DNA from: Macrostomum lignano
Taxonomy: Eukaryota
DNA length: 64,000 nt
Assembly (NCBI GenBank): GCA_002269645.1
Contig: NIVC01003682.1
Location: 1 to 64,000, forward strand
Reading direction: 5' to 3'
The notes under the pieces are model-generated. The model was not told where the DNA came from. It worked only from the letters and a program-made list of their open reading frames with translations, and did not search any database. Position numbers and translations under genes: made by a program. Within the stretch, counting starts at the first letter, position 1, and each line of letters starts with the position of its first letter. Below are positions 86-52,135 of the stretch, piece by piece.

Positions 86-7587
<7,502 letters not shown>

Positions 7588-12883: not shown

Positions 12884-15800
12884 GCAAGCCATCAAACTGT
12901 GCCAGCGCCCCCACTGCCGCAGTGCCTGCCTGGACTTCAGTGTCCACTTGCACAGCTGAGCCCTCGGCAGAGACGCAAAATTAGTAGAAAATGGCATCAA
13001 GCTGCTTCAGCAGCCGGCTCCACAGTGCTAAGCGCCGAGCCCACAGCCTGCTTGTTAGTGGCCAATGCTGGCCTCCATAATGGCATCGGTGAGTCCAACC
13101 TAGTCAGTCTGGGCTTGCCAGGCCTAATCAGAGTTATCCAACCAGCTGGCCAGTCTCACTGCTTCCTGCTATTCCACGATGCCGCCTCAGCAGAAGAGGC
13201 TGCCGCTGGTTTGCAGTTACACCAACTGGCCGATTCCATGCCTGCGGGCTCAGTTCTGTATGTCTTCTTTGCTGATCCGGAGTTGGCAGTCAAACAGGTG
13301 CAATCTTCGGATCCTAATGAAGTGAGTGGGTCTAAGCGTTTATAGGCTCAATATATTCTTAAATCTAGTATTGATTTGGTATGATTCATTTGAAGTTGCT
13401 CGCAAAATTACAGGAATTCAGATCCTTGGCTTGGCCACCGCCAGCCTCCCAGATCCTTAGTTGCTGGGTCATCAACACCCTCTCAGATCCTTACTTGCGG
13501 TGCCACCGCCACCCTCCCAGATCACCAGTTGCTGGGCCACCGCCAGACTTTCAGATCCTTAGGCTGTGCCACCCTCCCAGATCTTTAGTTTGGCAGGTTT
13601 CTTAATTTCTATACCATAGCTATGAACATATCATGGTATCGTTAACATTGTCGTAATCTGTGCTTAAAGGTGGCTACAACAAATCTAGCCGACAGCAGCG
13701 CGCTGCCGCCCGGTCTCAGCCTCACCCTGGACGCCGTGTCGCTGGCCGAGGAGGCCGAACTCCTGGCCCTGGTCGATGCCGAGCTAGACAGCGGTGACCG
13801 CGACGTCGCCATTGCCGACGGCCGCCTACGCAATCGCCGCGTTGTGCACTGGGGCCACGAGTTTCTCTATGGTCGAAACCGGCTGGCTCCGCTGCCCGAC
13901 CGGCCGCTTCCCCCCGCCTGCGCGACCGTCGCCGATCGACTGACGCCGGCCTGGCTGCCCAGGCCCGACCAGCTGACTGCCAACGTCTACGAGCCAGGCG
14001 GCGGCATCGCTGCTCACGTGGACTCGCACGCCGCTTTCGGCGATTCAATTCTGTCTGTCAGTCTGGGCAGCGGCTGCGCTTTCAGATTGACCCGGCCCGG
14101 CCGGCCCACCATCTGTCTGGCGCTGCCGCCTCGATCCGCTCTGCTGCTGACTGGAGAAGCGCGCCTAGTCTGGCGCCACGAGATTCCGGCTCGCCAGGTT
14201 GACTTGGTTGCTTCTGCTAGCAGCAGCGGAGGCTGCGATTTAGTTAAGCGAGGTCGACGGGTGTCGCTAACCTTTAGGCAAGCTCGGCAATCCAAACAGC
14301 CGTGCAGATGCGGCTTCGGCGACGTCTGCGACGAAGATCGAGGCGTTGATGGTGCTTCTAGGTTAGCTAACTCGCCTCCACTGATATTTTTTGTGCCGAA
14401 GCCGAATTTGCGTGATCTTTACCCGAATGTTAGTAGCCTTATAATCCAATGCGTGATAATCTTCATCCTATGACTGATTATCTTCATCCTATGACTGATT
14501 ATCTTCATCCTATGACTGATTATCTTCATCCTATGGCTGATTATCTTCATCCTATGGCTGATTATCTTTATCTTATGGCTGATTATCGTCATCATATGGC
14601 TGATTATCTTCATCCTATGGCTGATTATCTTCATCCTATGACTGATTATCGTCATTATATGGCTGATTATCTTCATCCTATGACTGATTATCGTCATCAT
14701 ATGGCTGATTATCTTCATCCTATGGCTGATTATCTTCATCCTATGACTGATTATCGTCATTATATGGCTGATTATCTTCATCCTATGACTGATTATCGTC
14801 ATCATATGACTGATTATCTTCATATTCTGGCTGATTATCTTCATACTCTGGCTGATTATCTTCATCCTCTGGCTGATTATCTTCATCCTATGGCTGATTA
14901 TCTTCATCCTATGGCTGATTATCTTCATCCTCTGGCTGATTATCTTTATCTTATGGCTGATTATCTTCATCCTATGGCTGATTATCTTCATCCTCTGGCT
15001 GATTATCTTCATCCTCTGGCTGATTATCTTTATCTTATGGCTGATTATCTTCATCCTATGGCTGATTATCTTCATCATATGGCTGATTATCGTCATCATA
15101 TGGCTGATTATCTTCATCCTATGACTGATTATCGTCATCCTATGACTGATTATCTTCATCCTCTGGCTGATTATCTTTTATCTTATGGCTGATTATCTTC
15201 ATCCTCTGGCTGATTATCTTCATCCTATGACTGATTATCGTCATCATATGGCTGATTATCGTCATCATATGGCTGATTATCGTCATCATATGACTGATTA
15301 TCGTCATCATATGGCTGAATATCTTCATCCTATGACTGATTATCGTCATCCTATGACTGATTATCTTCATCATATGGCTGATTATCTTCATCCTATGACT
15401 GATTATCGTCATCATATGGCTGATTATCGTCATCATATGGCTGATTATCGTCATCATATGACTGATTATCGTCATCATATGGCTGATTATCTTCATCATA
15501 TGGCTGATTATCTTCATCATATGGCTGATTATCTTCATCATATGGCTGATTATCGTCATCATATGGCTGATTATCTTCATCCTATGGCTGATTATCTTCA
15601 TCATATGGCTGATTATCTTCATCATATGGCTGATTATCTTCATCATATGGCTGATTATCGTCATCATATGACTGATTATCGTCATCATATGGCTGATTAT
15701 CTTCATCCTATGACTGATTATCGTCATCCTATGACTGATTATTTTCATCATATGGCTGATTATCTTCATCCTATGACTGATTATCGTCATCATATGGCTG

Positions 15801-18800
15801 ATTATCGTCATCCTATGACTGATTATCGTCATCATATGACTGATTATCGTCATCATATGGCTGATTATCTTAATCCTATGACTGATTATCTTCATCATAT
15901 GACTGATTATCTTCATCATATGGCTGATTATCTTCATCATATGGCTGATTATCGTCATCATATGGCTGATTATCGTCATCATATGACTGATTATCTTCAT
16001 CATATGGCTGATTATCTTCATCATATGGCTGATTATCTTCATCATATGGCTGATTATCTTCATCATATGGCTGATTATCGTCATCATATGGCTGATTATC
16101 TTCATCCTATGGCTGATTATCTTCATCATATGGCTGATTATCTTCATCATATGGCTGATTATCTTCATCATATGGCTGATTATCGTCATCATATGGCTGA
16201 TTATCGTCATCATATGGCTGATTATCTTCATCCTATGACTGATTATCGTCATCCTATGACTGATTATCTTCATCATATGGCTGATTATCTTCATCCTATG
16301 ACTGATTATCGTCATCATATGGCTGATTATCGTCATCCTATGACTGATTATCGTCATCATATGACTGATTATCGTCATCATATGGCTGATTATCTTCATC
16401 ATATGGCTGATTATCTTCATCCTATGGCTGATTATCGTCATCATATGGCTGATTATCTTCATCATATGGCTGATTATCGTCATCATATGACTGATTATCG
16501 TCATCATATGGCTGATTATCTTCATCCTATGACTGATTATCGTCATCCTATGACTGATTATCGTCATCCTATGACTGATTATCTTCATCATATGACTGAT
16601 TATCTTCATCCTATGACTGATTATCTTCATCCTATGGCTGATTATCTTCATCCTATGACTGATTATCTTCATCCTATGACTGATTATCTTTATCCTATGA
16701 CTGATTATCTTCATCCTATGGCTGATTATCTTCATCATATGACTGATTATCTTCATCCTATGGCTGATTATCTTCATCCTATGGCTGATTATCGTCATCC
16801 TATGGCTGATTATCGTCATCCTATGACTGATTATCTTCATCATATGACTGATTATCTTCATCCTATGGCTGATTATCTTCATCCTATGGCTGATTATCTT
16901 CATCCTATGGCTGATTATCGTCATCCTATGACTGATTATCGTCATCCTATGGCTGATTATCGTCATCCTATGGCTGATTATCTTCATCCTATGGCTGATT
17001 ATCGTCATCCTATGGCTGATTATCTTCATCCTATGGCTGATTATCGTCATGCTATGGCTGATTATCTTCATCCTATGGCTGATTATCGTCATCCTATGAC
17101 TACTATGGACTGGCAGATCCGTTGATTTTGGAGGTGGGGTGGGTGTCAACCCTCCTCGCCTCTCATTGGCTGGCGCCCCGATCACTAGGTGATCGATACG
17201 CGTATCGATATCGGCGCTCGGCGCGCGCGCGCCGCAGGCGCGTGGCGCCAAGCGCCGCAGGCGCACCCTCCCGATATTAGATCCCAATAAATCAATCAGA
17301 TCCCAAATCAATCAGATCCCAAGCGCACCCTCCTGAGCCGCAGACGCCCATGCCGCAGGCGCCCCGAGTGTACACTCTCCCGAGCCAAAGGTACACTCTC
17401 CCCAGTACACTCTCCCCAGTACACTCTCCCGATATGTACACTCTCCCACTCTCCCGATATGGGTGTACACTCGCCCAATACAGGTGTACACTCTCCCGAT
17501 ATGTAGTCAACGATACGTACCCCGCAGGCACCCTATACCTCACGCCCTGCCCCCACCTAGCCTCTTCCCCTCTCTCACCCACATCTCAACTAGCGAAATC
17601 GAACCCAGGTCGCGCCCATACTAGGCCACTACACGGTTTGGGGTATAGGGAGCGAGAAGTTTTAACCCTGATGCTGACGCAGCCCTGTACAGTGAGCGTG
17701 TACGGGCAGAGAGGGGTGGGGCGGACAGAGAACCAGCCACTAGGTTGTTATACTGTTGAAGCATAGGGAGCGAGAAGTTTTAACCCCGATGCTGACGCAG
17801 CCCTGTACAGTGAGCGTGTACGGGCAGAGGGTGGGTGGAAAGAGATGTGAATAACACAGCCTGCTGCAGGAGCCGGATAGAGAGGCGCATGCTAGGACAG
17901 AGAGACAGTGTGAGTCACACACACACCCACAGAGAGAGCCGTACAGAGGATAGAGAGCTCCCTCCCCAGTTGCAGGGGACAGAGAGGCAGGCAGGGTATG
18001 CAGGGGCATGCGAACAGTCAAGGGGCCACGCGAGGATAGAATGGAGGAGCAGAGATGTGTATGGACAGAGAGCAGGCCACGCGTGCGTAGTGTGAGGGAA
18101 CAGAAACATATGGAGCAGGAGGGAGATAGGAAGCAAACGCGCAGGGTAAGGGAGCCACACAGGGCGGTACAGTGAGACACGGGCAGGGGTGGAGCCGTGC
18201 GTGGACAGAGCTGAACGGCATGGTCAGCTGCAGGAATAGGATGATAGAGAGGCGCGGATAGGAGGGACAGAGAGCAGTGTGCAGGGGTAGGCAGCCACGC
18301 TGGCAGGGAACAGAGGCGCGTGTAGCCAGTTGCAGCCCGGGACAGAGAAGTGTGAAGGGGGCCTGGGACAGAGTTCCGAGCAAGGCACAGAGAGGTAGGG
18401 TCCGGTAGCCATGTATAGACAGGGACCCACGCGAGGGCAGGACAGGGGAGTAGACATGCAAGTTGCATGCAAGGCCAGAGAGGTGTGCGCGGAGGGAGAC
18501 AGAGAGCAGTGTGTAGGGGTAGGTAACAGCAAACTTTAGTAGAGGTGCGTGCGGGGACGGAGAAACCAGTCTGAGCGTACAGAGACGTTACAGAGAGGTA
18601 CACAAACAGAGAACAAAGCGAGCAGAGCACATGTGTAGGCGCAGAGACGTGAGGGAGAATCGACCAAAACACGCTATGTATTATCAAAAGTTGGTTTTAG
18701 TGCAGCATATTTAATAGTGGGTAGTATAATAGTATGTACATAGTAGGTATAATGGTAGTAATAATAGTAAGTATATTAGTCCAAAAGGTAGGCTAAAACA

Positions 18801-21800
18801 GGCTAAACTGTGTGTACGCATCCTCATCACCCCACAAGCCCCCTCTCCCGCCAGATTCACTCTTCCAAACCCTCCTGTATTGCTGTATGAAGGAAAATAT
18901 AGTGTAAAAATACAGATGTTAACCGTCAGACCGCTGAAATCAGGGCACACTAGAGGGGGTTTCGGGGTCTGCATGCTCTATGTAAGCTGCTTGAGGAGGT
19001 TCCAAGGGCGTTGTGAGGGTTTCCATTATGTTTTGAAAAAACTAGGGGCTTAAATACAACGTTTTATTCAAAAAGTAGGTTATTTTAATGAAATAGCTGA
19101 CACAATCATTGTCGAGAGTAGAAATTTTTATAAGAAACCAGGCATTTTAGCAAAAATAAACCTTCAAACCACATAAAATTGAATAAAAAGCAGACATTTT
19201 CAATTATAAACCGCAAGTATTTTAATAGAAAAGTAAGCAAACAAGGCACAAAAGCAGCAAATTTTACCTTTTTTATTTTAATGTTACTGTTAAGGTAGAG
19301 AGTAGAAACTTGTGAGCTGTACGGAGTTAGAAAGTATTAACCATTATGTATCGTATGAATTATTAGTTCAGTACCAGCTATTGGTCAAGCGAGCATTTAT
19401 GAAGTTATTACGAGTGATGAAGGGATAGAGAGCTATATACAGGAAGACAGTATCCTTCTAAACCACCACGAACAGATTGCTAATACAGATAAGCTTTGTC
19501 TGTGTGCAGTATGAGTAAGCGAAGGCGGGGCAAATACTTTTCCACATGCCGGACAGAACAGTATTGTGCTAGGATTTCTCTCGAAATCGCGGTACGTTAC
19601 TAGTTTTTATCACACCATCCAGATGCGTCATCTAGTCAGCAGTAGTCATTTATATGTTATTAGAACTTACAAACCCAGGTCAGGTAAATATTACAAAGAG
19701 TATATTACGTACACACGCCAACTCCGAATACCAAGCCATACTAGTCTACTTGCAGTGCTCCTGGAGGGAAGGGACGGTCAAGAGTTACACACCAAGAATG
19801 CATTCACACAAAGAGTACACCACTCGAGCCCCGTCCATGCGCCCCGATATGTATGACGCAGGCAGCCCTCCCGACATGTATGCCGCAGGCGACCCTCCCG
19901 ACATGTACCCAACATGTATGTCGCAGGCGACCCTACTGACATGTACCCCGACATGTACACCCTACCAAATGGCACTCGAGCCACAGGTGCCAAGCGGCCC
20001 CCCGAAATGTACGCCGCGGGCGCCCCCCCCTCCCGAGCCGAAGGTACACTCTTCCAATATGAGTGTACACTCTCCCAATACAAGTGTACACTCTCCCAAT
20101 ATGAGTGTACACTCTCCCGATATGATCTCCCGATTAGACATAATTGTACGCATAAATGTACGCAATTTCCGGTATATAGGACCACATGTACGCAAATGTA
20201 CACAATGTACACAAACAAACACACACACACACACAAACACAAACACACACACACACACACACACATACACACACACACACCCTCAGGCGTATTCACAGCA
20301 AGAGCTTCCTGCCGATGGCGCCATCGCCTGCGGCGATCGGCGCTGCAGGATGCGCTCTGCAGGATACGCCTGAGTGTGTGTGTGTGTGTATGTGTGTGTG
20401 TGTGTGTGTGTGTGTTTGTGTTTGTGTGTGTGTGTGTGTTTGTTTGTGTGCATTGTGTACATTTGCGTACATGTGGTCCTATGTGCCGGAAGTTGCGTAC
20501 ATTTGTGCGTACAATTATGTCTATGCGCTACATTGTGTGTAGTTCGTTGCCCTGCGTTTGTAAATACAGTTTAGTCCGTGCACTGCATTGATGCCTACTT
20601 TTGTGTTAGGTACCTGCTTTTTATTAAATACACTGCACCAAAAGCAACTTTAATCGGTACATACTGTGTTTTTGTAGAGGTGCCGGTATGCTTTTTAATA
20701 CATATGTCTTTAGTGTAATTTGGTGTGCTTCAACTTGGCTCGCGAATCTTGCACTATAGCTCTCTAGTGGAAAGTACTCTTACTTGTGCTGGCTGCAGGT
20801 GATAGTAAGGCTTTCTGCTTGACTTCTTTAGTTTACTTGATGGTTAAATGAGGAGTGGGAGCTGACGCGCCTACCTCGGGGGAGGAATGCAGCCCCACGG
20901 TCTGGTGCAGTGCAGCGCTTTCTGTTATCCCTCTCCGTCCGCACTGTACTTGGTCTCCGCTAGGATCACCCCTTGGGGTTAAGAGTGGGCGGGTCCTTTG
21001 TACTCGACCCTGGGTTAAAAACTCGCATTTGGAGGCTCTGGGGAGAGTTGCAGTGGAGTTCAACAAATTTCTGATAAGATCTCTTGCGGGGGCATGACAC
21101 TCGTCTCGAAATAATAAAAACCTGAACAAGTGCTGGATGCCCTTACTAGTTGGCGGGTTGTTACCTCTACAATTGTGTACTATTTCTGTCAATATTTTCC
21201 CCTGCATTATGTCAATATGTGCTACAGCGTGTCATAATATGATACTTTACGCACTAATATGTATCATAATTTTCCTGCATTATGCCTGCTTCTGTCTCTA
21301 CGATGTGTGTATTTTAGCCTATGCATCTACATAATTCGAATCTACAGTGTGTGCATATGCACCTGCATTATACTTGTATCTACTGTGCGTATGTGTATTT
21401 CAACCTATGTTTTACAATATACTAGCATCTACAAGCGCCTACTACACTAATGAGTAGGTTCTGTGTATTATACCTACTATTTTGTCTATTTCACCTACTT
21501 TTCTGCCAAAATATCGATAAAATGCACCTACATTGTGTGTTTTTGCTGTCCATATGCTTAATTCTATATGTCCGTACACCTATATGTTTCGTAATATGTA
21601 TTATGCCCTGATATTTACACCTACTGATGTGATTAATATGTGTTTTGCTTACTTTTTACGTAAATATACGCAATTTCACCTACTATAAGTAGTTTTCACT
21701 AGCCTAATTTTGTGTTAATAGGTATTGTTGACTACAAATCGATGTACACTCATATCGGGAGAGTGTACACTCATATTGGGAGAGTGTACACTTGTATTGG

Positions 21801-24800
21801 GAGAGTGTACACTCATATTGGAAGAGTGTACCTTCGGCTCGGGAGGGGGGGCGCCCGCGGCGTACATTTCGGGGGCCGCTTGGCACCTGTGGCTCGAGTG
21901 CCATTTGGTAGGGTGTACATGTCGGGGTACATGTCAGTAGGGTCGCCTGCGACATACATGTTGGGTACATGTCGGGAGGGTCGCCTGCGGCATACATGTC
22001 GGGAGGGCTGCCTGCGTCATACATATCGGGGCGCATGGACGGGGCTCGAGTGGTGTACTCTTTGTGTGAATGCATTCTTGGTGTGTAACTCTTGACCGTC
22101 CCTTCCCTCCAGGAGCACTGCAAGTAGACTAGTATGGCTTGGTATTCGGAGTTGGCGTGTGTACGTAATATACTCTTTGTAATATTTACCTGACCTGGGT
22201 TTGTAAGTTCTAATAACATATAAATGACTACTGCTGACTAGATGACGCATCTGGATGGTGTGATAAAAACTAGTAACGTACCGCGATTTCGAGAGAAATC
22301 CTAGCACAATACTGTTCTGTCCGGCATGTGGAAAAGTATTTGCCCCGCCTTCGCTTACTCATACTGCACACAGACAAAGCTTATCTGTATTAGCAATCTG
22401 TTCGTGGTGGTTTAGAAGGATACTGTCTTCCTGTATATAGCTCTCTATCCCTTCATCACTCGTAATAACTTCATAAATGCTCGCTTGACCAATAGCTGGT
22501 ACTGAACTAATAATTCATACGATACATAATGGTTAATACTTTCTAACTCCGTACAGCTCACAAGTTTCTACTCTCTACCTTAACAGTAACATTAAAATAA
22601 AAAAGGTAAAATTTGCTGCTTTTGTGCCTTGTTTGCTTACTTTTCTATTAAAATACTTGCGGTTTATAATTGAAAATGTCTGCTTTTTATTCAATTTTAT
22701 GTGGTTTGAAGGTTTATTTTTGCTAAAATGCCTGGTTTCTTATAAAAATTTCTACTCTCGACAATGATTGTGTCAGCTATTTCATTAAAATAACCTACTT
22801 TTTGAATAAAACGTTGTATTTAAGCCCCTAGTTTTTTCAAAACATAATGGAAACCCTCACAACGCCCTTGGAACCTCCTCAAGCAGCTTACATAGAGCAT
22901 GCAGACCCCGAAACCCCCTCTAGTGTGCCCTGATTTCAGCGGTCTGACGGTTAACATCTGTATTTTTACACTATATTTTCCTTCATACAGCAATACAGGA
23001 GGGTTTGGAAGAGTGAATCTGGCGGGAGAGGGGGCTTGTGGGGTGATGAGGATGCGTACACACAGTTTAGCCTGTTTTAGCCTACCTTTTGGACTAATAT
23101 ACTTACTATTATTACTACCATTATACCTACTATGTACATACTATTATACTACCCACTATTAAATATGCTGCACTAAAACCAACTTTTGATAATACATAGC
23201 GTGTTTTGGTCGATTCTCCCTCACGTCTCTGCGCCTACACATGTGCTCTGCTCGCTTTGTTCTCTGTTTGTGTACCTCTCTGTAACGTCTCTGTACGCTC
23301 AGACTGGTTTCTCCGTCCCCGCACGCACCTCTACTAAAGTTTGCTGTTACCTACCCCTACACACTGCTCTCTGTCTCCCTCCGCGCACACCTCTCTGGCC
23401 TTGCATGCAACTTGCATGTCTACTCCCCTGTCCTGCCCTCGCGTGGGTCCCTGTCTATACATGGCTACCGGACCCTACCTCTCTGTGCCTTGCTCGGAAC
23501 TCTGTCCCAGGCCCCCTTCACACTTCTCTGTCCCGGGCTGCAACTGGCTACACGCGCCTCTGTTCCCTGCCAGCGTGGCTGCCTACCCCTGCACACTGCT
23601 CTCTGTCCCTCCTATCCGCGCCTCTCTATCATCCTATTCCTGCAGCTGACCATGCCGTTCAGCTCTGTCCACGCACGGCTCCACCCCTGCCCGTGTCTCA
23701 CTGTACCGCCCTGTGTGGCTCCCTTACCCTGCGCGTTTGCTTCCTATCTCCCTCCTGCTCCATATGTTTCTGTTCCCTCACACTACGCACGCGTGGCCTG
23801 CTCTCTGTCCATACACATCTCTGCTCCTCCATTCTATCCTCGCGTGGCCCCTTGACTGTTCGCATGCCCCTGCATACCCTGCCTGCCTCTCTGTCCCCTG
23901 CAACTGGGGAGGGAGCTCTCTATCCTCTGTACGGCTCTCTCTGTGGGTGTGTGTGTGACTCACACTGTCTCTCTGTCCTAGCATGCGCCTCTCTATCCGG
24001 CTCCTGCAGCAGGCTGTGTTATTCACATCTCTTTCCACCCACCCTCTGCCCGTACACGCTCACTGTACAGGGCTGCGTCAGCATCGGGGTTAAAACTTCT
24101 CGCTCCCTATGCTTCAACAGTATAACAACCTAGTGGCTGGTTCTCTGTCCGCCCCACCCCTCTCTGCCCGTACACGCTCACTGTACAGGGCTGCATCAGC
24201 ATCAGGGTTAAAACTTCTCGCTCCCTATACCCCCAAACCGTGTAGTGGCCTAGTATGGGCGCGACCTGGGTTCGATTTCGCTAGTTGAGATGTGGGTGAG
24301 AGAGGGGAAGAGGCTAGGTGGGGGCAGGGCGTGAGGTATAGGGTGCCTGCGGGGTACGTATCGTTGACTACATATCGGGAGAGTGTACACCTGTATTGGG
24401 CGAGTGTACACCCATATCGGGAGAGTGGGAGAGTGTACATATCGGGAGAGTGTACTGGGGAGAGTGTACTGGGGAGAGTGTACCTTTGGCTCGGGAGAGT
24501 GTACACTCGGGGCGCCTGCGGCATGGGCGTCTGCGGCTCAGGAGGGTGCGCTTGGGATCTGATTGATTTGGGATCTGATTGATTTGGGATCTGATTGATT
24601 TGGGATCTGATTGATTTGGGATCTGATTGATTTGGGATCTGATTGATTTATTGGGATCTAATATCGGGAGGGTGCGCCTGCGGCGCTTGGCGCCACGCGC
24701 CTGCGGCGCGCGCGCGCCGAGCGCCGATATCGATACGCGTATCGATCACCTAGTGATCGGGGCGCCAGCCAATGAGAGGCGAGGAGGGTTGACACCCACC

Positions 24801-26247
24801 CCACCTCCAAAATCAACGGATCTGCCAGTCCATAGTAGTCCTATGGCTGATTATCTTCATCCTATGGCTGATTATCGTCATCCTATGGCTGATTATCTTC
24901 ATCCTTTCGCGGATTTTCTACACAGTAGGAATGCAAAGCCATTTCTCCGCCCGCAGAACTACCAAAGTAGGGGGCCCCCTAAAACTGCAAACTGCCATCA
25001 AGTCACCAGCTTTTCGGACCGCCTAGATAAATATTCAACAATTCTGCTAGAAGGGAAGTTTGGATTTTCACATAAGCGCCAGTGTATTCAATACAGCCTC
25101 TGTGCGTCAATCAGCACTGCACCTCAGTGCGGCCTTGCCAAGTCTCTAAATTTCATCAGCACTTCGACCATGTGTCTGCATCAGTTCTGACTTCGTTTCT
25201 CACCCGCCTTCAACCAGACAGAGCTTCTGGGCCTTCAATATGTTGACACCAGGTGACTATGGACACCTGTTTTGAATTTCTTGGATGTCGCAGATCAAAA
25301 TTCAATAATGAGCAAACCTCAAGGCTGATGATATAGCCATGCTAAAAAAAAATTAATAATGTCCACATTGACGTTGATGCTCTCTGATCCCATTTCAATC
25401 TTGATTTGCGAGATTCCATTACGACTAAGCCATGACTCGTACCTGCAATTCCAGCCTCAGCCCCGCCGAGAGCCAGCCAACTCAGCAACAGCAGGCTCTA
25501 GATCCAGCCAGCCTTGAGCGCGAGTTCGTACACTCAGTGTACGACTCCATCGCCGATCATTTCAGCGACACCCGGCACTCGCGCTGGCCCCGCGTGGCCG
25601 CTTTTCTAGCGGACCTGCCGCCAGGCTGTCTGCTTTTAGACATCGGCTGCGGCAACGGCAAGAACATGTTGGCTAGGCGGGATCTGCTAGCTATTGGCTG
25701 CGATCGCAGCGTGGCGCTGTGCACCGTGTGCGCTAGCCGCAGCCTGCCGGTATTCCAAGCCGACGCTTTGCAATTACCATTGCGCAATGCCGTATTCGAT
25801 GCGGCCGTGTGCATTGCCGTATTGCATCATTTGAGTACTAGGGAGCGCCGGTTAGCCGCTATTAAGGAGCTGGCCCGCGTCAGCAGGCCTAACGCGCCGA
25901 TTCTAATCTACGTGTGGGCTATGGAGCAGCGGCGCAATGGCAAAGCATCGGCCTACTTAAAGAAGCCAGAGGAGTCTGACGATGCCGGACAGAGAGGGGA
26001 ACAGTTGGTTCGCGATGCCCGCACGGGTCTGGGCGTTCATCGGCCCGGCTCCGAATTCAAATCTGCCGACATGCTGGTGCCTTGGCGCAGCCGATCAGAC
26101 GAACGATTGCGCTTCTATCACTTGTTTGTTGAAGGCGAATTAGACCAGCTGTGCACAGATAGCGGCCTGTTCCAACTGATCGAGGCCTACTACGACAATG
26201 GCAACTGGTGCGTCCGACTGTTGCGCAACGATGCGCCTGTCAGCTGA
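12884..26247 (+). CDS. ALKBH8: ALKBH8 tRNA wobble-uridine modifying enzyme (RRM + AlkB 2OG-Fe(II) dioxygenase + Cys cluster + Trm9-type SAM methyltransferase)
   Basis: Exons 12884-13321 (RRM-like: LLVANAGLHNG...SHCFLLF), a probable 13414-13596, 13670-14361 (PPGL...NVYEPGGGIAAHVDSH...RRVSLTFR...CRCGFGDVCD) and 25455-26247 (LEREFVHSVYDSIADHFSDTRHSRWP...LDIGCGNGK...NGNWCV). The phase-2 donor at 14362 matches the phase-2 acceptor ending 25454. The start codon was not located. Confidence 0.93.
14454..17098. repeat. 21-bp minisatellite/satellite (consensus cctatggctgattatcttcat), ~125 units; about three more units at 24840-24905
   Basis: Directly visible; source of the MADYLHP and KIISHRM ORFs. 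Confidence 0.98.
17099..24839. mobile_element. 7.74-kb non-autonomous foldback/palindromic element with ~3-kb inverted arms (17099-20124 and 21750-24839), ~1.6-kb spacer and a TSD
   Basis: Ends are ACTACTATGGAC...GTCCATAGTAGT. Flanks are cctatg (17093-17098) and cctatg (24840-24845). Mirror-image identical ORFs in the track (e.g. 17740-18687 minus and 23186-24133 plus) confirm near identity of the arms. No recognisable enzyme ORF. Confidence 0.9.
20135..20523. repeat. Nested ~390-bp imperfect hairpin (MITE-like) in the spacer of the large palindrome
   Basis: tagacataattgtacgc...(AC)n-ctcaggcgtat on the left mirrors atacgcctgag-(TG)n...gcgtacaattatgtcta on the right. Confidence 0.85.
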
Positions 26248-26759: not shown

Positions 26760-29700
26760 TAAGATTACCTTAAGACTCGAGCCTCTTCAGTGGGAAGTTC
26801 TCTCAACTCTCAGTAGCGTAGGTAGTGCTGCCACCAGTTCCTCCAGGTCTCGGCCTTGGATGAGGTGAGCTTCCCGTCGGAACGAAATAAACAAGTCAAC
26901 GAACTCAGCACAGCGTGCAGATTTGCAGATTAATGAACAAGGCGTCCTGATCAGCAGATCCCCGCCGGGCTCAGGGGTGGCTGGGAAGGCAGTGTTAGCC
27001 TCCCTTAGGCTTGGGCTTTAGTGGGGTCTCAGTCAGACCAGTACAAACGGATTCAGTACGCAAAGGGCACTTAGTTAGACACTGACGCGCACGGGATCTT
27101 AGTGAATTCTTCACAGATAAGAAGCCTTTCCTTGACGGAAACAAGGGAGAGGGGTCCTATTTATAACCGGGAAACACCCACGCACAAGACCTCGTGACCT
27201 CGTTCTATTTTTAGAACTGACGTCACTTGAGGGTCTCCCAGCAGAGTGCACATGGCTGTGACTCAGTTGCTATTTTTAGCAACATTAGTCACTCCTCTCC
27301 TTATATTAGAGAAGGGAGGGGGCCGAAAGCATGTGACTCTCCCGGTAAACAGGGCCAACAAGTGCAGTAAACATTTTTACTGCACTTTAGGACTCAAGGA
27401 ACAGAGGATCTGTCATGTGACTCGCTCACATGACAGGGGAAACAAAGACCGAGCGAAACAGAGACAGCCCACAGCAGAGAAGCTGAGGGCTGAGAAACAA
27501 GGGGCAAAACGGGGGGGGGGGGGGCAAACGGCAACCTAAACCGAGGGACTCTGTGACATCTGCCAGCTTTTCGTCTTTCGAGGAGGCTTTTCCCCCTCCT
27601 TTTTCGCTCTGGCCTGGCGTGGAAGCGGCTAGCTTCCTCGTTTTGGTCTGCTGGTGGAGGACGGATCCCCCCTGCTGCTTTTCTGCAGGGCAGGTGGCTG
27701 CTAAGTAGTTGGCCGCTGGCTAAGCGCCAACTACCCATCGACAGCCCATGGTTGCAACTGGTACCACACGGGTTCTCGAGGGCCGCTCCTGTGGGGGAGG
27801 GCTCGGGCGTCGGCTGTCAACCCGACCTGGCGCCTGTGTCCCAAGCCCGCAGCCGGCCTCCCGCCCCCTGATCTTGCAGAGTGTGGACCGGGGGCCTGCC
27901 GGAGCCTCGCCTGGGAGCAATCCTGGGGAAAGATGGCAACCCAAAGCCTTCCTGCTGTTCGCCGTGGCAGGGGGTAGCTCCTCGGAGCTGGCTGGGGGTA
28001 TACCCAGTCCCCGAGCGGTCGGTCTGCCTTTTTCTAATTTGTGTTTCTTCTCCGTTTCAGCTTCTATGGATTCTGAACAAAAATCTCTTCTGGCTCGGGA
28101 GCCGGCAACTCCCGCGGCCGGGGGTCCGAAAATCCCCCAACCCTCCAGCTCGGAGGTACTTCTCTCCGCGAACCCCGCGGTTACTACCCTAAGTGGGGCT
28201 AATTCGACTCCCACTGGTGGAGATTCTGGTGGTGACACAACCACGTACCGCGACAGCGAGGCTAACGCGGCTCCCAGCACTGTCCGCAAGAGGCAGCAGC
28301 CTGAGGACCGCACACTTACCCCCAGGACCCGAAGCGCTCTAAGGGCAGGGGGACAGCCGGCTCCTATGCCAAGGTGGCTGCTGAGCCCCTCCATAAAACC
28401 TGCGTCCGTGCGGCCAGCGGGACGCTGAGTGACGCCCAGATGGAAGGTGCTGTAGCCCTCGTTGACGACTTCCTCTGGGATAACGACCATCTCGGTGTTG
28501 AGGTCGAGTCAGTCAGATTCGCCAACGGCAATCTCATCCTCGCTTTCAAAAGTGAGGTCCATCTGAGCACTGCCTTAGCCAACCTGCCCAGCATCGACTG
28601 GAGTACCTCCACGGCACAGCTCCCGGAGCTGGTCGTTGAGAAGGCCCGTCCTCCGCCTCCATGTAAGAGGTATAGGGCCTTCTATTCCGGGCACAGGACG
28701 ATCGAGGAGATCCGTGGTCGTCTTGTCGCCAAGCACCCCGAGTTGCCTGCGGACGGCCTCCGGGCCTACAAGGAGGTGCCGGCCAAGGACGGCAACGGGA
28801 AGACCCTCTACATGGGCCTCTCCGCAGATTGGGAGCGCCACATGCAAGGCAAAGACCACGCCGCCTACGTTGGGGCATGGAAGTTAGTCTTCCACCTCAT
28901 CCCTAGGAAGAAGCGCAACGCCGGCGGTGAGCAGCGCCGAGACGATCCCGAGAGCCCGGATAGCTCTGAGGGCGAGACTTAAGCTGTTCTCGACCCGCCA
29001 TGCCCAGATCTTCAATGATGAGGCGTGACCGTCTGAGGACCAACCCGGCGGGTGGGTCCAATGATGATTTAACCACACTCACGCAAAACAGTGATCCTAA
29101 CCTGCACATCGTGCAGATTAATCTGCACCACGCGGTCGCAGCCTCCAGCAGCCTCACCGACACCCTCGATGGCACCGGTGTTGACATCTACCTCATCCAG
29201 GAGCCTTACACCGTGAGAGGTAAGCCCACCCTGCTGCCGAAAGGCTACCAGATCCTCTTCCTCTCTGGAGGGGAAACCCCTAGGGCCATTGCTCTGGTCA
29301 AGTACGAGCTCGCAGCCATGCTCATGCCGATGTTTTGCAATAAAGACATCTGTACCTTCACCGTGAACGGGATGATTTTCTCATCCGTCACCCCTCCTGC
29401 AGGATCTCGCAAACTATTGTATCATCGAGAACCGGAACCTCATTATTGGTTGCGACGCTAATGCTCACAACACTGCGTGGGCTAGCAGTAACACTAACCT
29501 CAGAGGTAGTATGCTTATTGATTTCATTGATTCGAATTTGCATATTTGCAACTTGGGGCGTAAACCCACCTTTGCGAATGCTAGCAGGAAAGAGGTCATT
29601 GATCTCACCCTTGCGTCCAGTAGCATCCTTAATCGGATTCAAAATTGGAGGGTCAGAGACGACATCCCCTCGCTCTCGGACCATTTCTACATCCATTTCA

Positions 29701-32700
29701 GCGTCACAGCTGGCGGCGCTCGCGTCACCAAGGCGAACCGTCCCAATTTAAAAAGGGCGGACTGGACTGGCTTCTGAAGGGACCTTGAGTCTCTGATCAG
29801 CAGAGAACCGGCCGATGACCTGGAAGGCTGCGATGATATTCCGAGCATTGAAGCACGCTGCAACAAACTTGTCGAGCTGCTTAATGCGGCCACGATCAAG
29901 AACGCTCCTCCGATTGTCAGTAGAAAGAAGTACTCACCTTGGTGGAACAAGGAGCTCACCCGCTTAAAAAAGGCCTCCCGTCGGCTGCATCGGATTGCCA
30001 ACCGGAACAACACCCCAGAAGACTGGGAGAACTACCACTCTGCTTTGAGAATCTACAAGAGTTGCATCCGGAAGGCCAAAAAGGACACCTGGAAGGCCTT
30101 CTGCGCCGGTTTAGAGGGCCAGCATCCTACTGCCCGGCTGGTCAAGTCCCTCAGGCATGACAACCTCGCCCAGTGTAACTCCCTCCTCCATTTGGATGGC
30201 AACTATTCCAGAACCGCCGAGGAATCCCTCAATCTGCTTTTCTCAGCTTGTTTCCCCACATGCGAGCATCCTGAGCAAATCGTTGCTGATCACAACCCAA
30301 GAGATCGACAGCTTTTCGAGCAGTGCGCCACCAAGAGCTTAATTCAGCTGGCCGCCAACACTTTTAAGCCGTTCAAAGCCCCCGGCATTGACAATATCGC
30401 CCCCTGTGTTCTCCAGGAAGCGGTTAAGCTGCAGAGCTTCTCTGCCTTTTTCTCTAAGCTCATCATTGACTGTTTCACCACTGGGTACATTCCCACTATC
30501 TGGAGGACCGCTCGGGTGGTCTTCATCCCCAAGCCTGCCAAAGGCGACTATTCTAATGTGAAATCTTTCCGCCCCATCAGCCTTACATCCTTCTGCATTA
30601 AGCTGATGGAGAGACTCATCTTGTGGAGGCTGCGCTACTGCGAGTTAAGGACGGCACCCATAAGTAAGCACCAATTCGCCTTCCAGCCAGGTAAAACCAC
30701 CGAGCACGCTTTGCATGTTATTACCTCAGCCATTGAGAAAGCTATCCTGAGTAAGCAGATTGCCTGTGGGCTTTTCTGCGATATCGACGGGGCCTTCAAT
30801 AACGTTTTGTTTGGCTCCTTCAGTGACTCCCTTTTGCAGAAAAAGGTCCGACCCAGCATTGTGCGTTGGATCGACTTTATGATCCGGAACAGGAAGGTGA
30901 CTTCCTCCCTCATGGATGCCACCTGCACTCACACGGTTACTAAGGGCGGAGCCCAAGGTGGAGTGCTCACCCCGCTGCTCTGGAATCTCGTGATGGACGA
31001 GCTCCTGACGGCTGACGTCCCCAGCAGCATAGTCAAGGCTGGCTACGCTGATGATGTCGCTGCTATTGTCAGTGGCCCTGACACCAGTACCCTCCGAAGC
31101 TTAATGCAGCAGTTCGCCGATAAGGCGCAAGCCTGGGCTACCCGGCACGGCCTAACCATTAGCACCGCTAAGACGGTGTCCATTATCTTCACCAGGAAGC
31201 GGAAGTGGAGCATGCGGAACCTCACCATCTACGGTAAGGACATACCCTTAGTCAAGGAAACTAAGTATCTAGGTGTGACGCTCACCCACGATCTGCGTTG
31301 GACCAAGCACGCTGACAATGTCATCGGGCGCGCCAGGCGCTGCTTTGCGCAGGTGAGGAGAGCCATCGGGCCTACTTGGGGTCTTTCTCCCAAGACGGTC
31401 AGATGGATTTACACCGGCATCGTTCGGCCCAGTATCACCTACGCGTGTGTTATCTGGTCCAGTGCGTTGGAGTTGAAGACTGTACGGGATCGGTTGTACC
31501 AGCTGCAGGGTAACATCTGCCGAGCCATCACCGGTGCGTATCCATCCACCCCTTACGAGGGGCTCAACACCATCCTCAGCATGCCTCCGCTGCATTTGTT
31601 CATTAGAGCTGAGGCGATGAAGGGCGCCGCGCGTCTCATCTGTGATAAATTTATTGCTAACACGCCCTCGGGCTTCATGCCTGAGAAGACTCTTTTCCCA
31701 CATCTGGACTATATCCGTCGCGATCTTCAACGCATCCACCTCAATTTAGACGAGGTGGACTGCAGATCCCCCACTCTCATCCTCAGGAGGGGCTTCAAGT
31801 GTACTCTTCCACCGAGAGGGAGTCACCCGCTGGACGTGGGCATCAACCGGAGAAGCCAGGGTATTCACTGCTTCACTGACGGATCCCTGCGTGACGGTCT
31901 CGCTGGTGCAGGCATTGCCATTTTCCACAAGGGTGAAGCGATCTTACAAGAGAGTCTTCATCTTGGTGAGAATGTCTCGGTTTTTCAATCCGAAGTTGTA
32001 GCTATCAACCAGTGCGCTGAGCATTTGCACAAAGCTGGCATCAGCAGCTTTGACATTTATTTTTACTCTGACAGCCAGGCCGCTATTAAGGCCTTGTCTT
32101 CTATCAAGCTCTCAACCAAGTCAGTCTCAGACTGCCTCAAAAGCTTGCAGACCCTAGCGATTCTCAACAGGATCAATGTTATCTGGACACCAGGCCATAG
32201 CAACATCCTCGGCAACGAGCTTGTGGATCAGCTTGCCAAGCGGGGTTGCACCCCTGATGGAGCGCAACGCTCAGTCAAGTTACCTTCTCCGAAGTCATCA
32301 ATCAACCGCGCCATTCAAGATTGGCTGAACCGCCAGCATCAGACTCACTGGGACAGCTGCTCCGGATACCGGCAAGCACGAAAGGCTATGCCTGCCATTA
32401 ACCGGAAAGTATCCGAATATCTAATCTCCTTAAGTAAAACTGACCTGAGGGAGATGTGCATGGTCATTACTGGCCATGGCTTCTTCCAGAGACATATTTC
32501 ACTGCAAAGTGGCTGCTCCCCTATCTGCCCATTCTGTGATTTAGAGGAGGAAACCTCGACGCACCACGTCACTTTCTGCCCGCACTTCAACGAGGCGCGG
32601 AGGCGTCACCTCGGTCACCCGCTAAGGCTTGACGAGCTCACCACTCCGGACCGTATCCGTGATCTACGTGCATTCGTTCGGGATTCTGGGCGGATGAAAA

Positions 32701-33016
32701 TCGCAGACGCCACTCTCGCGAGCTCTTCTGCCGGCGAGGGGTGGGCGCAGCCCCAAGGCTAACGCCTTTCTGTTTCTGTTTAGCTTGGGGTTGCGATAGG
32801 GGCCTCGCGGCCTGTTCGCGGCGCTCTGCCCCCCGTCGGTAGTAAGTAAGTAAGGGGCAAAACGGGCAAACGAGGGAAGGGATCAGCAGCAACAGACAGA
32901 CAAAAGGAGGGAGGCGGGAAGCTGACCAGCGGCAGACAGCAACCCAGGGCGAGGGCGAGGGCAAGGGCGACTGCTGACAAAGTGCGACGCCTAACACCAA
33001 CTAGCGGATCACTACA
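26760..33016 (-). mobile_element. Possible solo-LTR-like sequence (26760-27530 plus 32852-33016) split by the LOA LINE
   Basis: On minus it starts TGTAGTGA at 33016 and has TATAAATA near 27160. A matching CA end and TSD were not found. Confidence 0.3.
27531..32851 (+). mobile_element. Non-LTR retrotransposon (LOA/R1-like) with ORF1 and ORF2 (APE + RT + RNase H + terminal Cys/His motif), inactivated
   Basis: ORF1 is split across frames (27748-28428 and 28374-28982). APE motifs QINLHH...IYLIQEPY and IIGCDANAH...DLT...SDH are broken by a frameshift (~29.4 kb) and a TGA at 29775. RT: KAPGID, FRPISL, QGGVLTPLLW, YADD. RNase H: FTDGS, SDSQAA, WTPGH. The element ends in a (TAAG)n tail and is flanked by duplicated aaggggcaaaac(G)ncaaacg. 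Confidence 0.92.
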
Positions 33017-44346: not shown

Positions 44347-46847
44347 TGTGTGTGTGTGTGTGTGTGTGTGTTTGTGCATTAGGCATTTCTTGGGACAAGC
44401 GTGTATAAACTGACCCGTGCTATTAGGACCAAAAATGTGTTGGGCCAGGCCCAATAAGTGCGTCCCGACACTTCCAAAAATGAATTCTATTGAAATGAAA
44501 AAATATTCATTGGAACCGTCTTTCGATTCTCCTTTCAAAAATCATTGTCATTTTTTCATATTTTTAATCAAACACGGGGAATCTAATGATTTGCAGTGTC
44601 CTAAGAAGTTTAAAAAATTATGCGAACTGATGGTCTGATCCAACAGAACAATTGGGTCTCAAATCGGAATTCTCGTTTTATTACAATATTTCTTACAATA
44701 TCAAGAAAGTCTACTACAAGTAACAGATAAAGGTTCCCCACAGGGCTGCCAATCAACACTTGAAAGGATCCACTGACATTTGGCATCGTGTTTACTAAAT
44801 ATGAAATAATTTAATACAGATTTAGAATATTACAAGCAAGCATACAAACCTAATAGATTTAGTATATTTAGATTTTTGCATAGAAACAGCTAGCATCTAA
44901 ATTCATTAGCTTCCAATTTCACTTATACACGAAACATAACAAATTAAGGTTACATCCGCTCGTGCCCTGGGCCATTTTAACTGAAATTCTCGTTTTAAAT
45001 CCGCTGCATTAATCTATTTGTCATATGTGAATGGGATTAACGGACTCAAGTTAGTGACTGGAGGCCATTAACGTAAAGTGACACTTTGAGTGAGGTAGTT
45101 TTCCGGTGGAAATTCTCACAGTCTTATGAAGCGCTTTTAGAGCAAAGAAATAAAGGGCAAAGAAAAACTTTGCATTTCCCGAGAAAACCGAGGACGAGTA
45201 TTAGAGGGAAACGTTTAATCTCTAAGGCTTTAAATGACTTCTTTATTGGCCTGGGTTTGGGCAGCCATACTATGCAGCAAATTTTTTCCTAGAATTATGA
45301 TAATTATCGTCTGGTATACTGAAAAGTACGGAGATACCAAGAAACTTAAGATGACTGCATGGACTGCTAGCACATGTTTGAGTGTCACTGTCACTGTAAA
45401 GTCTAAATCGATGACTAGTTGGCCCAAAACTACTAGGCCTTCCTGGAAAACAATTCTGCTTATCTTGGATCGTAAAGATAAACCCACGTACAGTGCAGAA
45501 GTGTTAGGACAAGCGTGTACAAGACCCAGGCAATCCCTTACCCAGGCCACGCGTACATTCCTATCGCGGCGGGGGGAAGCGGGGAGGAGAGGCGGGTGCA
45601 AGGGAGTCGGGATAAAGTTTACACTGAAGTTGAGGCCTACAAGAGGAAGAGCCAATTCTAACGGAAAGGTTCATGTAGAAGTTCCCTTTGACAAAAGGCG
45701 TACTGGCGGTACTGCATATGTTCAAACGAATATAATTCATTTACGAGACCTGCACTACACAGACAAAATGTGCCATGTCACAAGAGTTTCCATGCATGAC
45801 CTGGCATGAAAAGACTTGGCTAGGAACCATTACACATATGTAAGTAGAATTTAAAATTCTTTTTAAAATTTTATGATTAAATAAAAACTTAACTGGAATT
45901 TACATATGTCTTTTCTAAAATTCCAGATACGTTGATTTCGATAAGCTACCGTTTTCTTCTATAACAAACAGATTTGCCTTCATTGTCCAGTAAGTATTGT
46001 CTCGTACTCGTATATGTCGTATTTTTTGTACGTTGAAAAAAATAATTAGCAGCCTAGTAATACTCTGAGCTCAGTGAAATATAAGAGAGGCGGCACGATC
46101 ACCTTATTTATCAATTAATTTACAACAGCCAGTTGAGCAATCATAAGTAGGCAAAATTTACACTTCTAGGAAGAACAAATTTTACTAAAAGTTTCAATCA
46201 AAACATTTAGGAAAGAAATCTCGCATGACACATCGCCCACAGTACTAGAGACTTGGAGAAATACTATGTGAGTTTGCTGGGCAACTAATATAATATATTA
46301 CTGTTATAATTCGATAGTCAAATTATTTTTCTACTCAAAGCAGTATTATTACATAACTAAAGAACAGTATAAAATGACAGCATTCTAGAACGAGAAACAA
46401 AGCTTACTGCAAAGGCAAACGCCTAAAGAAAAGCAGGGCAGAGTCAGCAACAAAAAAGAAGCTCATCTGATTGGGAAGATGGGCGGTCAGCAAAGAGATA
46501 GGATCTCAGAAAATTGCAATTCCCAGTAACTAAAACTTAATTGCAATAAGTGTTTTGTTTTCTAGGGCATTATTAAAACAAGCAAGCCTGCCTGCAGTCA
46601 GCTAAGGGCAAAGTAAGTTGCTGCGGCACTATCGAGAAAGTGAAATTTGTACATACTCCATCTAACTGACACAAGCAGCACCGTTGGGACAAACTACGAG
46701 TATTTTAATTGTACAGTAAAATTTCATTGACAATGAAGCATTTATTAGAACAGCGACATTTAAATCTGTTTTCAAACAAATCAGACAGATTTCTCAATAA
46801 GTGATTTTTCTTTTGTGCGCCCACGCACAGGTTCATCCGCATTCAAA

Positions 46848-49800
46848 CTCGCCGCTGCATCCGTCATTTATTTCACTTGCTGCTCACAAGCCGCAGCAGC
46901 AGCAGCAGCAGCAGCAGCAGCCGCTATCCATGCAGGCAGTCAGTCTATTTGTGAATTTTCTGGTGGATCTGAAGAAAACCCGTCCGGCACAGGATTAAAG
47001 AGAAAGAGACGATCTGTTTTGGGTGAGTATTATCTGCTGTAGAAGTATTGTACACCAGAGTACTTGTGTTACCTGGTAGAGCACAATTCAAAAGCAATGC
47101 AACATCTCAGTGGCATTGTTGGGACACAAGCTACAAACGCAATGAATAGTAAACACAGCCCAGTCTAGCTCAAGGCTAGTAATTTGTTGGGCATTTATTG
47201 GGACATTGCAGCCAGGCTTATTTTTTGAACAGCATTTGTTGGGTCGCACTTATTGGGACAATACTGATTCTAATCGCGACTACTTCTGAGTTCTGACTTT
47301 TCAAAACAGACCCAGCATTAGTTGAACACGTTCTATTAAAGGGTTCTTTATAGCCTATTAATGATTACTAAAGCAAGCCTATCTTAATTGATTTCTTTTC
47401 CTCACAGCTTCTGAAGTCAGCAACGCCAGCGACATGCCTAAGAGACAAGAATGCGCTTTAACGATCAGCAGCGAGCATTCTGATCTCGCCGCTGCATCCG
47501 TCATTTAGTTCACTTGCTGCTCACAAGCCGCAGCAGCAGCAGCCGCTATCCGTGCAGGCAGTCAGTCTATTTGTGAATTTTCTGGTGGATCTGAAGAAAA
47601 CCCGTCCGGCACAGGATTAAAGAGAAAGAGACGATCTGTTTTGGGTGAGTATTATCTGCTGTAGAAGTATTGTACACCAGAGTACTTGTGTTACCTGGTA
47701 GAGCACAATTCAAAAGCAATGCAAAATCTCAGTGGCATTGTTGGGACACAAGCTACAAACGCAATGAATAGTAAACACAGCCCAGCCTAGTTCAAGGCTA
47801 GTAATTTGTTGGGCATTTATTGGGACATTGCAGCCAGGCTTATTTTTTGAACAGCATTTGTTGGGTCGCACTTATTGGGACAATACTGATTCTAATCGCG
47901 ACTACTTCTGAGTTCTGACTTTTCAAAACAGACCCAGCATTAGTTGAACACGTTCTATTAAAGGGTTCTTTATAGCCTATTAATGATTACTAAAGCAAGC
48001 CTATCTTAATTGATTTCTTTTCCTCGCAGCTTCTGAAGTCAGCAACGCCAGCGACATGCCTAAGAGACAAGAATGCGCTTTAACGATCAGCAGCGAGCAT
48101 TCTGATCTCGCCGCTGCATCCGTCATTTAGTTCACTTGCTGCTCACAAGCCGCAGCAGCAGCAGCCGCTATCCATGCAGGCAGTCAGTCTATTTGTGAAT
48201 TTTCTGGTGGATCTGAAGAAAACCCGTCCGGCACAGGATTAAAGAGAAAGAGACGATCTGTTTTGGGTGAGTATTATCTGCTGTAGAAGTATTGTACACC
48301 AGAGTACTTGTGTTACCTGGTAGAGCACAATTCAAAAGCAATGCAACATCTTAGTGGCATTGTTGGGACACAAGCTACAAACGCAATGAATAGTAAACAC
48401 AGCCCAGCCTAGCTCAAGGCTAGTAATTTGTTGGGCATTTATTGGGACATTGCAGCCAGGCTTATTTTTTGAACAGCATTTGTTGGGTCGCACTTATTGG
48501 GACAATACTGATTCTAATCGCGACTACTTCTGAGTTCTGACTTTTCAAAACAGACCCAGCATTAGTTGAACACGTTCTATTAAAGGGTTCTTTATAGCCT
48601 ATTAATGATTACTAAAGCAAGCCTATCTTAATTGATTTCTTTTCCTCACAGCTTCTGAAGTCAGCAACGCCAGCGACATGCCTAAGAGACAAGAATGCGC
48701 TTTAACGATCAGCAGCGAGCATTCTGATCTCGCCGCTGCATCCGTCATTTAGTTCACTTGCTGCTCACAAGCCGCAGCAGCAGCAGCCGCTATCCGTGCA
48801 GGCAGTCAGTCTATTTGTGAATTTTCTGGTGGATCTGAAGAAAACCCGTCCGGCACAGGATTAAAGAGAAAGAGACGATCTGTTTTGGGTGAGTATTATC
48901 TGCTGTAGAAGTATTGTACACCAGAGTACTTGTGTTACCTGGTAGAGCACAATTCAAAAGCAATGCAACATCTCAGTGGCATTGTTGGGACACAAGCTAC
49001 AAACGCAATGAATAGTAAACACAGCCCAGCCTAGTTCAAGGCTAGTAATTTGTTGGGCATTTATTGGGACATTGCAGCCAGGCTTATTTTTTGAACAGCA
49101 TTTGTTGGGTCGCACTTATTGGGACAATACTGATTCTAATCGCGACTACTTCTGAGTTCTGACTTTTCAAAACAGACCCAGCATTAGTTGAACACGTTCT
49201 ATTAAAGGGTTCTTTTATAGCCTATTAATGATTACTAAAGCAAGCCTATCTTAATTGATTTCTTTTCCTCACAGCTTCTGAAGTCAGCAACGCCAGCGAC
49301 ATGCCTAAGAGACAAGAATGCGCTTTAACGATCAGCAGCGAGCATTCTGATCTCGCCGCTGCATCCGTCATTTAGTTCACTTGCTGCTCACAAGCCGCAG
49401 CAGCAGCAGCCGCTATCCTTGCAGGCAGTCAGTCTATTTGTGAATTTTCTGGTGGATCTGAAGAAAACCCGTCCGGCACAGGATTAAAGAGAAAGAGACG
49501 ATCTGTTTTGGGTGAGTATTATCTTCTGTAGAAGTATTGTACACCAGAGTACTTGTGTTACCTGGTAGAGCACAATTCAACAGCAATGCAACATCTCAGT
49601 GGCATTGTTGGGACACAAGCTACAAACGCAATGAATAGTAAACACAGCCCAGCCTAGTTCAAGGCTAGTAATTTGTTGGGCATTTATTGGGACATTGCAG
49701 CCAGGCTTATTTTTTGAACAGCATTTGTTGGGTCGCACTTATTGGGACAATACTGATTCTAATCGCGACTACTTCTGAGTTCTGACTTTTCAAAACAGAC

Positions 49801-51945: not shown

Positions 51946-52135
51946 TTCTGGCGGAGCTGGTTATATTTTAAGTTTCTGAATCGAGTAGCCGATCAACTGT
52001 TGTTTGATTTACTCGAATATTATTTAAAGGACGCATTTGTTTGCATTCTGTTTCTAATAAAATCCTGTGCACTGACCGCGGTGGAGCTCTAGCATTTTGC
52101 TTTTTATAGTATTTGTGTATATTGTTCTTCAAGCT

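Follow-up and report, generated by a model that had tools for sequence, protein, structure and literature searches.

The subject of this analysis is a palindromic element at positions 17099..24839 of a 64,000-nucleotide stretch of Macrostomum lignano DNA (contig NIVC01003682.1, positions 1 to 64,000, below called the window), which shares its ends with two classes of coding elements in the same genome: class A, which encodes a protein-primed polymerase, and class B, which encodes an integrase and a capsid. Taken together, these elements are probably best understood as a bipartite Polinton (A plus B) accompanied by a gene-less snap-back satellite, the palindrome. On its own, the window element fails as a member of the Polintons, and it works like a Polinton dependant. 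In a more specific form, to which we give about even weight, the three classes would represent an old lineage of bipartite integrating double-stranded DNA animal viruses, with two separately packaged segments of ~10 kb, a polymerase spliced by the host, a hairpin cheat that is gene-less and of a size to fit the capsid, and a 20-base “barcode” that all three classes swap during joint replication. The features of the window element and its surroundings are as follows:

17099..24839: palindromic element, starting ACTACTA and ending TAGTAGT
17093..17098: left target-site duplication CCTATG, which occurs only once at the C4875 empty site
24840..24845: right target-site duplication CCTATG
17099..17105, plus strand: left end ACTACTA, putative protein-priming origin and integrase site
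17106..17125, plus strand: hypervariable 20-base block, with variants also found in A and B elements
17126..17520, plus strand: subterminal region akin to the terminal inverted repeat (TIR) of A elements, with GC-rich hairpins and 16-, 14- and 21-bp subrepeats
~17666..17990 (approximate), plus strand: stretch akin to the TIR of B elements, the likeness being measured on the right arm
17099..20124, plus strand: left arm, without its inner 1227 bp
20135..20523: central stem-loop, made up of a stem, (CA)n/(TG)n tracts and, at about 20280-20374, an asymmetric loop of ~92 bp that is conserved
20524..21750, minus strand: inner right arm, unpaired, its outer part akin to the inner TIR of A elements
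21750..24839, minus strand: paired right arm, ending in TAGTAGT
14454..17098, resuming 24839-24919: host 21-bp satellite, the insertion target
13646..26247, plus strand: host gene, in which Pfam identifies a 2OG-Fe(II) oxygenase exon at 13646-14473 and a methyltransferase exon at 25429-26247

The preliminary description of this stretch, made from its letters alone, had reported near-identical inverted arms between the ends ACTACT...AGTAGT, and a CCTATG duplication in the satellite, and the coordinates of all of these hold. The arms are 99.7% identical across 2851 bp (BLAST), and differ by one 64-bp block (a 16-bp unit in 2 vs 6 copies, which accounts for the gap in arm length as proposed), three 1-bp homopolymer indels and one substitution. 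In contrast, the picture of long TIRs around a spacer has to be given up. The centre of symmetry is the stem-loop at 20135-20523 (folding z score of -36 against 100 shuffles), and 20524-21750 is arm sequence, the 1227-bp partner of which is gone from the left arm. The 1.6-kb “spacer” is this stem-loop centre plus unpaired arm, and the window copy is a deletion copy of a ~9-kb palindrome that folds over its whole length around a conserved hairpin centre. The element sits between the oxygenase and methyltransferase exons of one host gene (Pfam), which we take to be ALKBH8-like. An exact empty site exists on C4875, where the 200-bp left flank runs directly into the right flank with a single CCTATG, indicating a recent insertion rather than a fold-back read; this and two more homologous loci in the assembly lack the element, and their satellite arrays are shorter and uninterrupted. 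The reported absence of an enzyme reading frame was borne out, as none of the six long frames scanned in the window element has a Pfam match, and no Rfam match was obtained in one full-length palindrome copy.

Our genome searches score the best candidates only, and the locus lists given here are lower bounds. The terminal 182 bp of the element have 265 candidates in the genome, the best 40 of which were scored, and the exact end pattern gave 239 matches compared to one for a control pattern. Fifty-one two-ended elements were fetched through palindrome- or A-type ends, comprising 22 palindromes, 19 elements with a polymerase, and 10 short or rearranged derivatives. Across all classes, 60 of 62 two-ended ACTACTA elements have an exact 6-bp duplication, and the alternative 4-bp parse in the preliminary description is excluded by the varied base that precedes ACTACTA (G, C, T and A in 29, 28, 19 and 12 cases, respectively, among 88 ends). 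ACTACTA itself is invariant in these 88 ends, but it formed part of the search pattern, having first been seen unselected.

Full palindromes are ~9.2 kb long and symmetric along their entire length, and 18 of the 20 without nested inserts measure 8.1-9.4 kb. They have a common central loop (stem, CA/TG tracts and an asymmetric loop of ~92 bp), which is seen in the printed sequence of 17 of 20 copies, lost from two and found as a BLAST match in one, and which is absent from the A and B copies examined; such a common centre argues for one lineage rather than repeated accidents. The centre region is also present in sequencing runs of eight studies (no RNA run is listed among its holders, which carries no weight either way). 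The two arms of a copy differ by 0-0.25% in 20 of 21 palindromes, compared to a median of 2.6% between copies, and clearly unlike left and right ends occur in none of 21 palindromes vs 5 of 19 A copies (p 0.018). Each arm is a patchwork, A-like at both ends and B-like over ~320 bp: the first 180-480 bases match A elements at 67-95%, and the likeness to the B TIR amounts to 73% over 317 aligned bases, with a score of 82 vs at most 42 in 40 shuffles. Being gene-less and self-complementary and keeping the termini of its putative helpers, the palindrome is like a snap-back satellite in these features. No transposase was found among 62 two-ended and 20 single-ended loci, as screened by markers and long frames only; the coding relatives between ACTACTA ends carry either a polymerase or a Polinton integrase and capsid. 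Longer copies with enzymes between the same ends, which the preliminary description had raised, thus do exist, but with the enzymes split over two classes rather than together in one copy. Its placement of the element as non-autonomous and Polinton-related stands, while the foldback-type option does not, given the terminal variants shared with A and B.

Individual copies show further rearrangements. C558a is a short derivative with a nested long terminal repeat retrotransposon. At two loci (C201:682657 and C843:289764) there are extra internal ends, after which 184 bp and at least 219 bp, respectively, of the element's own left flank recur in inverted orientation, reflecting either palindrome-driven rearrangement or assembly error. 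A 4.3-kb insertion on C1 (L179) consists of one arm and the centre, closed by ~20 terminal bases and flanked by a 6-bp duplication, from which the minimal right end may be very short. In the flanks of 144 ACTACTA ends, pyrimidine-purine is favored at the two central positions of the 6-mer (~80% each), a preference that counts both ends and is hence symmetric by construction.

Class A elements (19 copies examined, 8.7-10.5 kb) have ACTACTA ends and 6-bp duplications, and family 1 of this class comprises at least 66 listed loci. They encode a protein-primed family B polymerase (Pfam DNA_pol_B_2), with exonuclease and polymerase motifs present in the one copy checked and an OTU-like motif, read by eye, at the N-terminus. 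Besides this there is a small protein with a distant likeness to PC4 proteins from the resident Polintons, and some copies have one further frame that has no assignment. None of the 19 copies has a match to integrase, capsid, protease or ATPase markers, the same markers having detected integrases in 8 of 35 distant loci and in class B. The polymerase gene region contains five GT-AG introns, which are kept in every measurable genomic copy; three of these are spliced out in all four public runs, and two in two of the four. The nearest polymerase proteins in UniRef are labelled Macrostomum lignano, and outside relatives are 28-41% identical. Single-protein scans found no relatives outside, and alignment scans found distant polymerases only, mostly 23-40% identical and on contigs too short to judge segmentation.

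We also note that in two family-2 A copies (C1945:114286-117021 and C2286:145609-150282) the frame of a long interspersed nuclear element (LINE) reverse transcriptase follows, in frame, the same N-terminal stretch, as if a LINE targets that site, and that the family-2 A copy C1263 has a dUTPase-like frame (by eye). A third polymerase family has ACTACTTA ends and 6-bp duplications (C89:299555-309864 and C237:16057-27381).

Class B surfaced in a capsid search of the genome with a distant query. Its members have ACTACTA ends, with 6-bp duplications in 10 of 10 pairs, and measure 10.0-10.5 kb apart from one of 11.9 kb, the four copies examined in full spanning 10.5-11.9 kb; 57 B-type ends were counted in the genome. 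The integrase is of the rve type with D-D-E motifs. The capsid is a double jelly roll: it has no sequence match to solved structures, the match coming from a fold search in which the model (pLDDT of 84.5) resembles the major capsid proteins of PBCV-1, Sputnik and mavirus (Foldseek E value of 1.7e-17), and DJR-like_dom is found in 14-30% of the members of its Atlas neighbours. Both B families have capsids ~80% identical to three outside capsid proteins. An ATPase-like gene is similar to the marker from resident Polintons, and the minor capsid and protease-like frames, which have no Pfam match, were assigned by position and by motifs read by eye. Five polymerase queries gave no match in B copies. 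Class B also has a Fic-domain gene and a TBP-like gene, and the resident complete Polintons likewise have a TBP-like gene.

The two classes lie apart in the genome: the closest approach between the 56 B-type integrase loci and the 103 A-type polymerase loci listed is 45 kb, no pair of the two falling within 20 kb (both lists are lower bounds). The split is repeated in a second family with ACTACGTA ends, which has its own A copies and its own B copies, and which differs from family 1 sufficiently (polymerases 61%, capsids 88% identical) that the split must be old. Complementary genes on separate elements with common ends, as in multipartite genomes, are thus found in two families, and the sizes of the A and B copies and of most palindromes match one another as those of segments would. 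A tie between the classes is seen at bases 8-27, which are hypervariable (38 variants in 88 ends) between nearly fixed flanking positions, and in which 113 of 190 position pairs fail the four-gamete test. We counted 21 variants of this block in palindromes, 18 in A and 16 in B elements, with identical variants occurring in palindromes and A (8), palindromes and B (3), A and B (4), and all three classes (2). Left and right blocks are also unlike in some B copies. In addition, there are hybrids, namely C428, with a polymerase and a palindrome arm, and C150, a B element with an A-type right end, each with its own 6-bp duplication.

The complete Polintons checked in this genome begin instead with AGTAGTA: this holds for one nested in a palindrome on C106, for 12 of 14 upstream regions, for 3 of 3 other elements and for two more. 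No sharing of ACTACTA-type ends with any AGTAGTA element checked was found. The nested one, at C106:360392-372511, has its own 6-bp duplication, and the same palindrome insertion occurs on C2693, where the interior is a tandem array. We had considered C106 as a master copy, but its integrase and capsid genes belong to the nested Polinton, and AGTAGTA Polintons as the helper were abandoned once class B was found. A sample of 20 unpaired ends had revealed no capsid class, using a pattern blind to class B, which differs after base 31. From one subfamily of complete Polintons to another, bases 8-24 or so likewise differ, with AGTAGTA and the motif after it unchanged, such that a variable block may be general to Polinton ends. 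A 13.7-kb metagenome contig (L289) carries a related polymerase, integrase and capsid, with 502-bp TIRs starting AC.

These observations can be joined into a mechanism, the steps of which follow the general biology of protein-primed replicons. The protein-primed polymerase of class A would initiate at ACT-ACT-A and replicate whatever molecule bears this end. A displaced palindromic strand could fold back over its full length to give a hairpin duplex of ~4.6 kb that has its origin in place, and synthesis around the loop would regenerate the ~9-kb form while keeping arms and ends alike; both the arm identity and the concordance of the ends suggest that the palindrome may replicate as a free hairpin at the expense of its helper. 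The integrase of class B would then insert all three classes, making the 6-bp duplications, and the common size of the classes suggests packaging in the capsid of B, although for true separate packaging in particles we regard the balance as even. Variants of the 20-base block would be exchanged through template switching or recombination between co-replicating molecules, with host silencing as one candidate for what drives the variation of the block, and the swap from AGT to ACT was possibly a single change copied by slide-back initiation. The window copy lost 1227 bp of one arm afterwards.

Polintons (Mavericks; adintoviruses, Eupolintoviridae) are among the closest known systems, sharing the 6-bp duplication, TIRs and a short tandem end motif, and A plus B provide their full set of rve integrase, double-jelly-roll capsid and protein-primed polymerase, with the capsid module on class B only. 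However, the members described keep polymerase and integrase on one molecule, whereas here the polymerase is on A only and the integrase on B only, the ends read (ACT)2A, introns interrupt the polymerase gene, and there are abundant copies of a gene-less palindrome. In the accessible parts of the papers cited here and below, intact vertebrate Mavericks are single elements of 12.7-24.6 kb, intronless, with ends (AGT)2, (AG)3 or (AC)3A (PMC8097293), and the definition of adintoviruses combines polymerase, hexon and integrase (PMC11071296, PMC8502044). The end polarity, described as atypical in the preliminary description, is indeed so, but is less odd than thought in view of the (AC)3A start among vertebrate Mavericks (PMC8097293).

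Other systems resemble parts of this arrangement. Bidnaviruses and the Drosophila Vesanto virus are segmented animal viruses in which a segment carries the polymerase and the terminal repeats of the segments are related (PMC8363768, PMC8502044); unlike the present elements, with their Polinton capsid and integration with duplication, they are single-stranded, have a parvovirus-type capsid and helicase, and lack an integrase. Neither the parvovirus NS1 helicase nor a single-jelly-roll capsid has a Pfam match in the 13 B and 6 A frames scanned. Snap-back (copy-back) defective genomes are likewise gene-less and self-folding with terminal signals; the palindrome, however, is a stable lineage with one conserved centre and the length of its helpers, is built from the TIRs of both helpers, and is inherited as chromosomal insertions. 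Theory on multipartite viruses expects “full cheats” beside complementary halves (PMC10159356), a position that the palindrome resembles. Cytoplasmic linear plasmids and transpovirons are, like class A, capsid-less and linear, with TIRs and a protein-primed polymerase or a derivative of it (PMC11071308), but class A contains spliceosomal introns, is flanked by 6-bp duplications where it has inserted into an animal genome, and is matched by a capsid-integrase class. Capsid-less polymerase elements have also been reported in fungi (PMC13215967), and non-autonomous Polintons appeared to be absent in a lizard survey (PMC3014272). As far as their accessible text extends, none of PMC11296320, PMC11414722 and PMC13215967 describes paired halves. 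We found no report of a segmented Polinton or a palindromic satellite in the literature searched (Repbase, subscription journals and supplements lay outside its scope), and the families of this species may already stand as separate Repbase entries.

Taking a bipartite Polinton with a palindromic satellite as the preferred explanation, a number of points weigh against it. Everything described here comes from integrated copies, from which we infer particles, free DNA and complementation. The palindrome arm includes ~2.4 kb of no assigned origin, and A and B of family 1 are alike in little beyond the first ~31 bases. The identity of arms within copies may be inflated by assembly polishing, and in one copy (C660) the arms are 3.4% apart. 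The types of the sequencing runs used for splicing were guessed, and one of the four runs with spliced joints was guessed to be DNA. In the accessible text on C. elegans, polymerase-plus-TIR loci without an integrase are treated as partial copies (PMC11414722). A rare complete ACTACTA element is possible, as our searches score best candidates only, and the genome holds many complete AGTAGTA Polintons, the enzymes of which might serve instead.

These last two points lead directly to the main alternatives. It is conceivable, though unlikely, that A and B are independent dependants of the complete AGTAGTA Polintons, with A an integrating element akin to a linear plasmid that borrows any integrase, B a polymerase-less virus that borrows any polymerase, and the palindrome a satellite of A alone. 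ACTACTA and AGTAGTA differ at two positions only, the TIRs of A and B are mostly unrelated, and there are published parallels, in the accessible parts of the sources, in integrated Polinton-like viruses without an integrase (PMC11296320) and in cytoplasmic linear plasmids derived from Polintons through capsid loss (PMC11071308). Such independence is hard to reconcile with the same unusual end and identical 20-base variants in A and B, with the hybrids C428 and C150, with the recurrence of the pairing in a second family that has its own end motif, and with ACT ends that are not shared with any AGTAGTA element checked. Alternatively, A, B and the palindromes could be deletion products of a complete ACTACTA Polinton, the active master of which was missed or lies outside the assembly; our searches are lower bounds, and A plus B amount to a full Polinton gene set of ordinary total size, but we consider this quite improbable. 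Deletion should leave varied breakpoints, yet the size and layout of each class are fixed, the classes have unlike TIRs past base ~31, A loci were not found adjoining B loci, and the same split is found in two families as far apart as noted above.

The remaining alternatives concern the palindrome itself. Its long inverted arms with internal subrepeats do resemble foldback elements, and it could in principle be a foldback-type cut-and-paste transposon with an unrelated transposase and a chance likeness to Polinton ends, but the match of its first 180-480 bases to A elements, the terminal variants in common with A and B, and the same 6-bp duplication largely refute this, leaving it very improbable. 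That it is a fold-back artefact of long-read assembly is scarcely credible: the inverted own-flank copies at C201 and C843 would fit an artefact, but left and right flanks differ and carry the 6-bp duplication, there is an exact empty site, one conserved non-flank centre recurs in independent insertions, and the centre region is found in the runs of eight studies.

If A and B are indeed segments, they would constitute a lineage of double-stranded DNA viruses in two parts, of which one genome preserves both halves together with a full cheat, and, if true, the model that derives multipartite viruses from cheating could be tested on it directly. For comparison, a 2016 review counts, in its accessible text, no multipartite viruses of animals other than one RNA virus and the single-stranded DNA bidensoviruses (PMC5094692). 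Surveys that require linked polymerase and integrase (as in the accessible part of PMC10748475) would discard A and B as fragments. Shared ends and hybrids among separately inserted classes also point, indirectly, to extrachromosomal replication of Polintons, a long-open point. The polymerase appears to be spliced in Macrostomum lignano, which is a laboratory flatworm, so that free DNA and particles can be searched for in the animal.

Finally, the window contains several features unrelated to the palindrome. A multi-exon gene on the minus strand (228-6586) encodes repeated cysteine-bearing domains and Thr-rich tracts, and appears mucin-like by eye. Two LINE-like retrotransposons, judged by eye from long frames, lie at 28305-32762 and 56966-61063, and a tandem array with a unit of ~620 bp, the copies of which are 97-98% alike, occupies 46839-51959.

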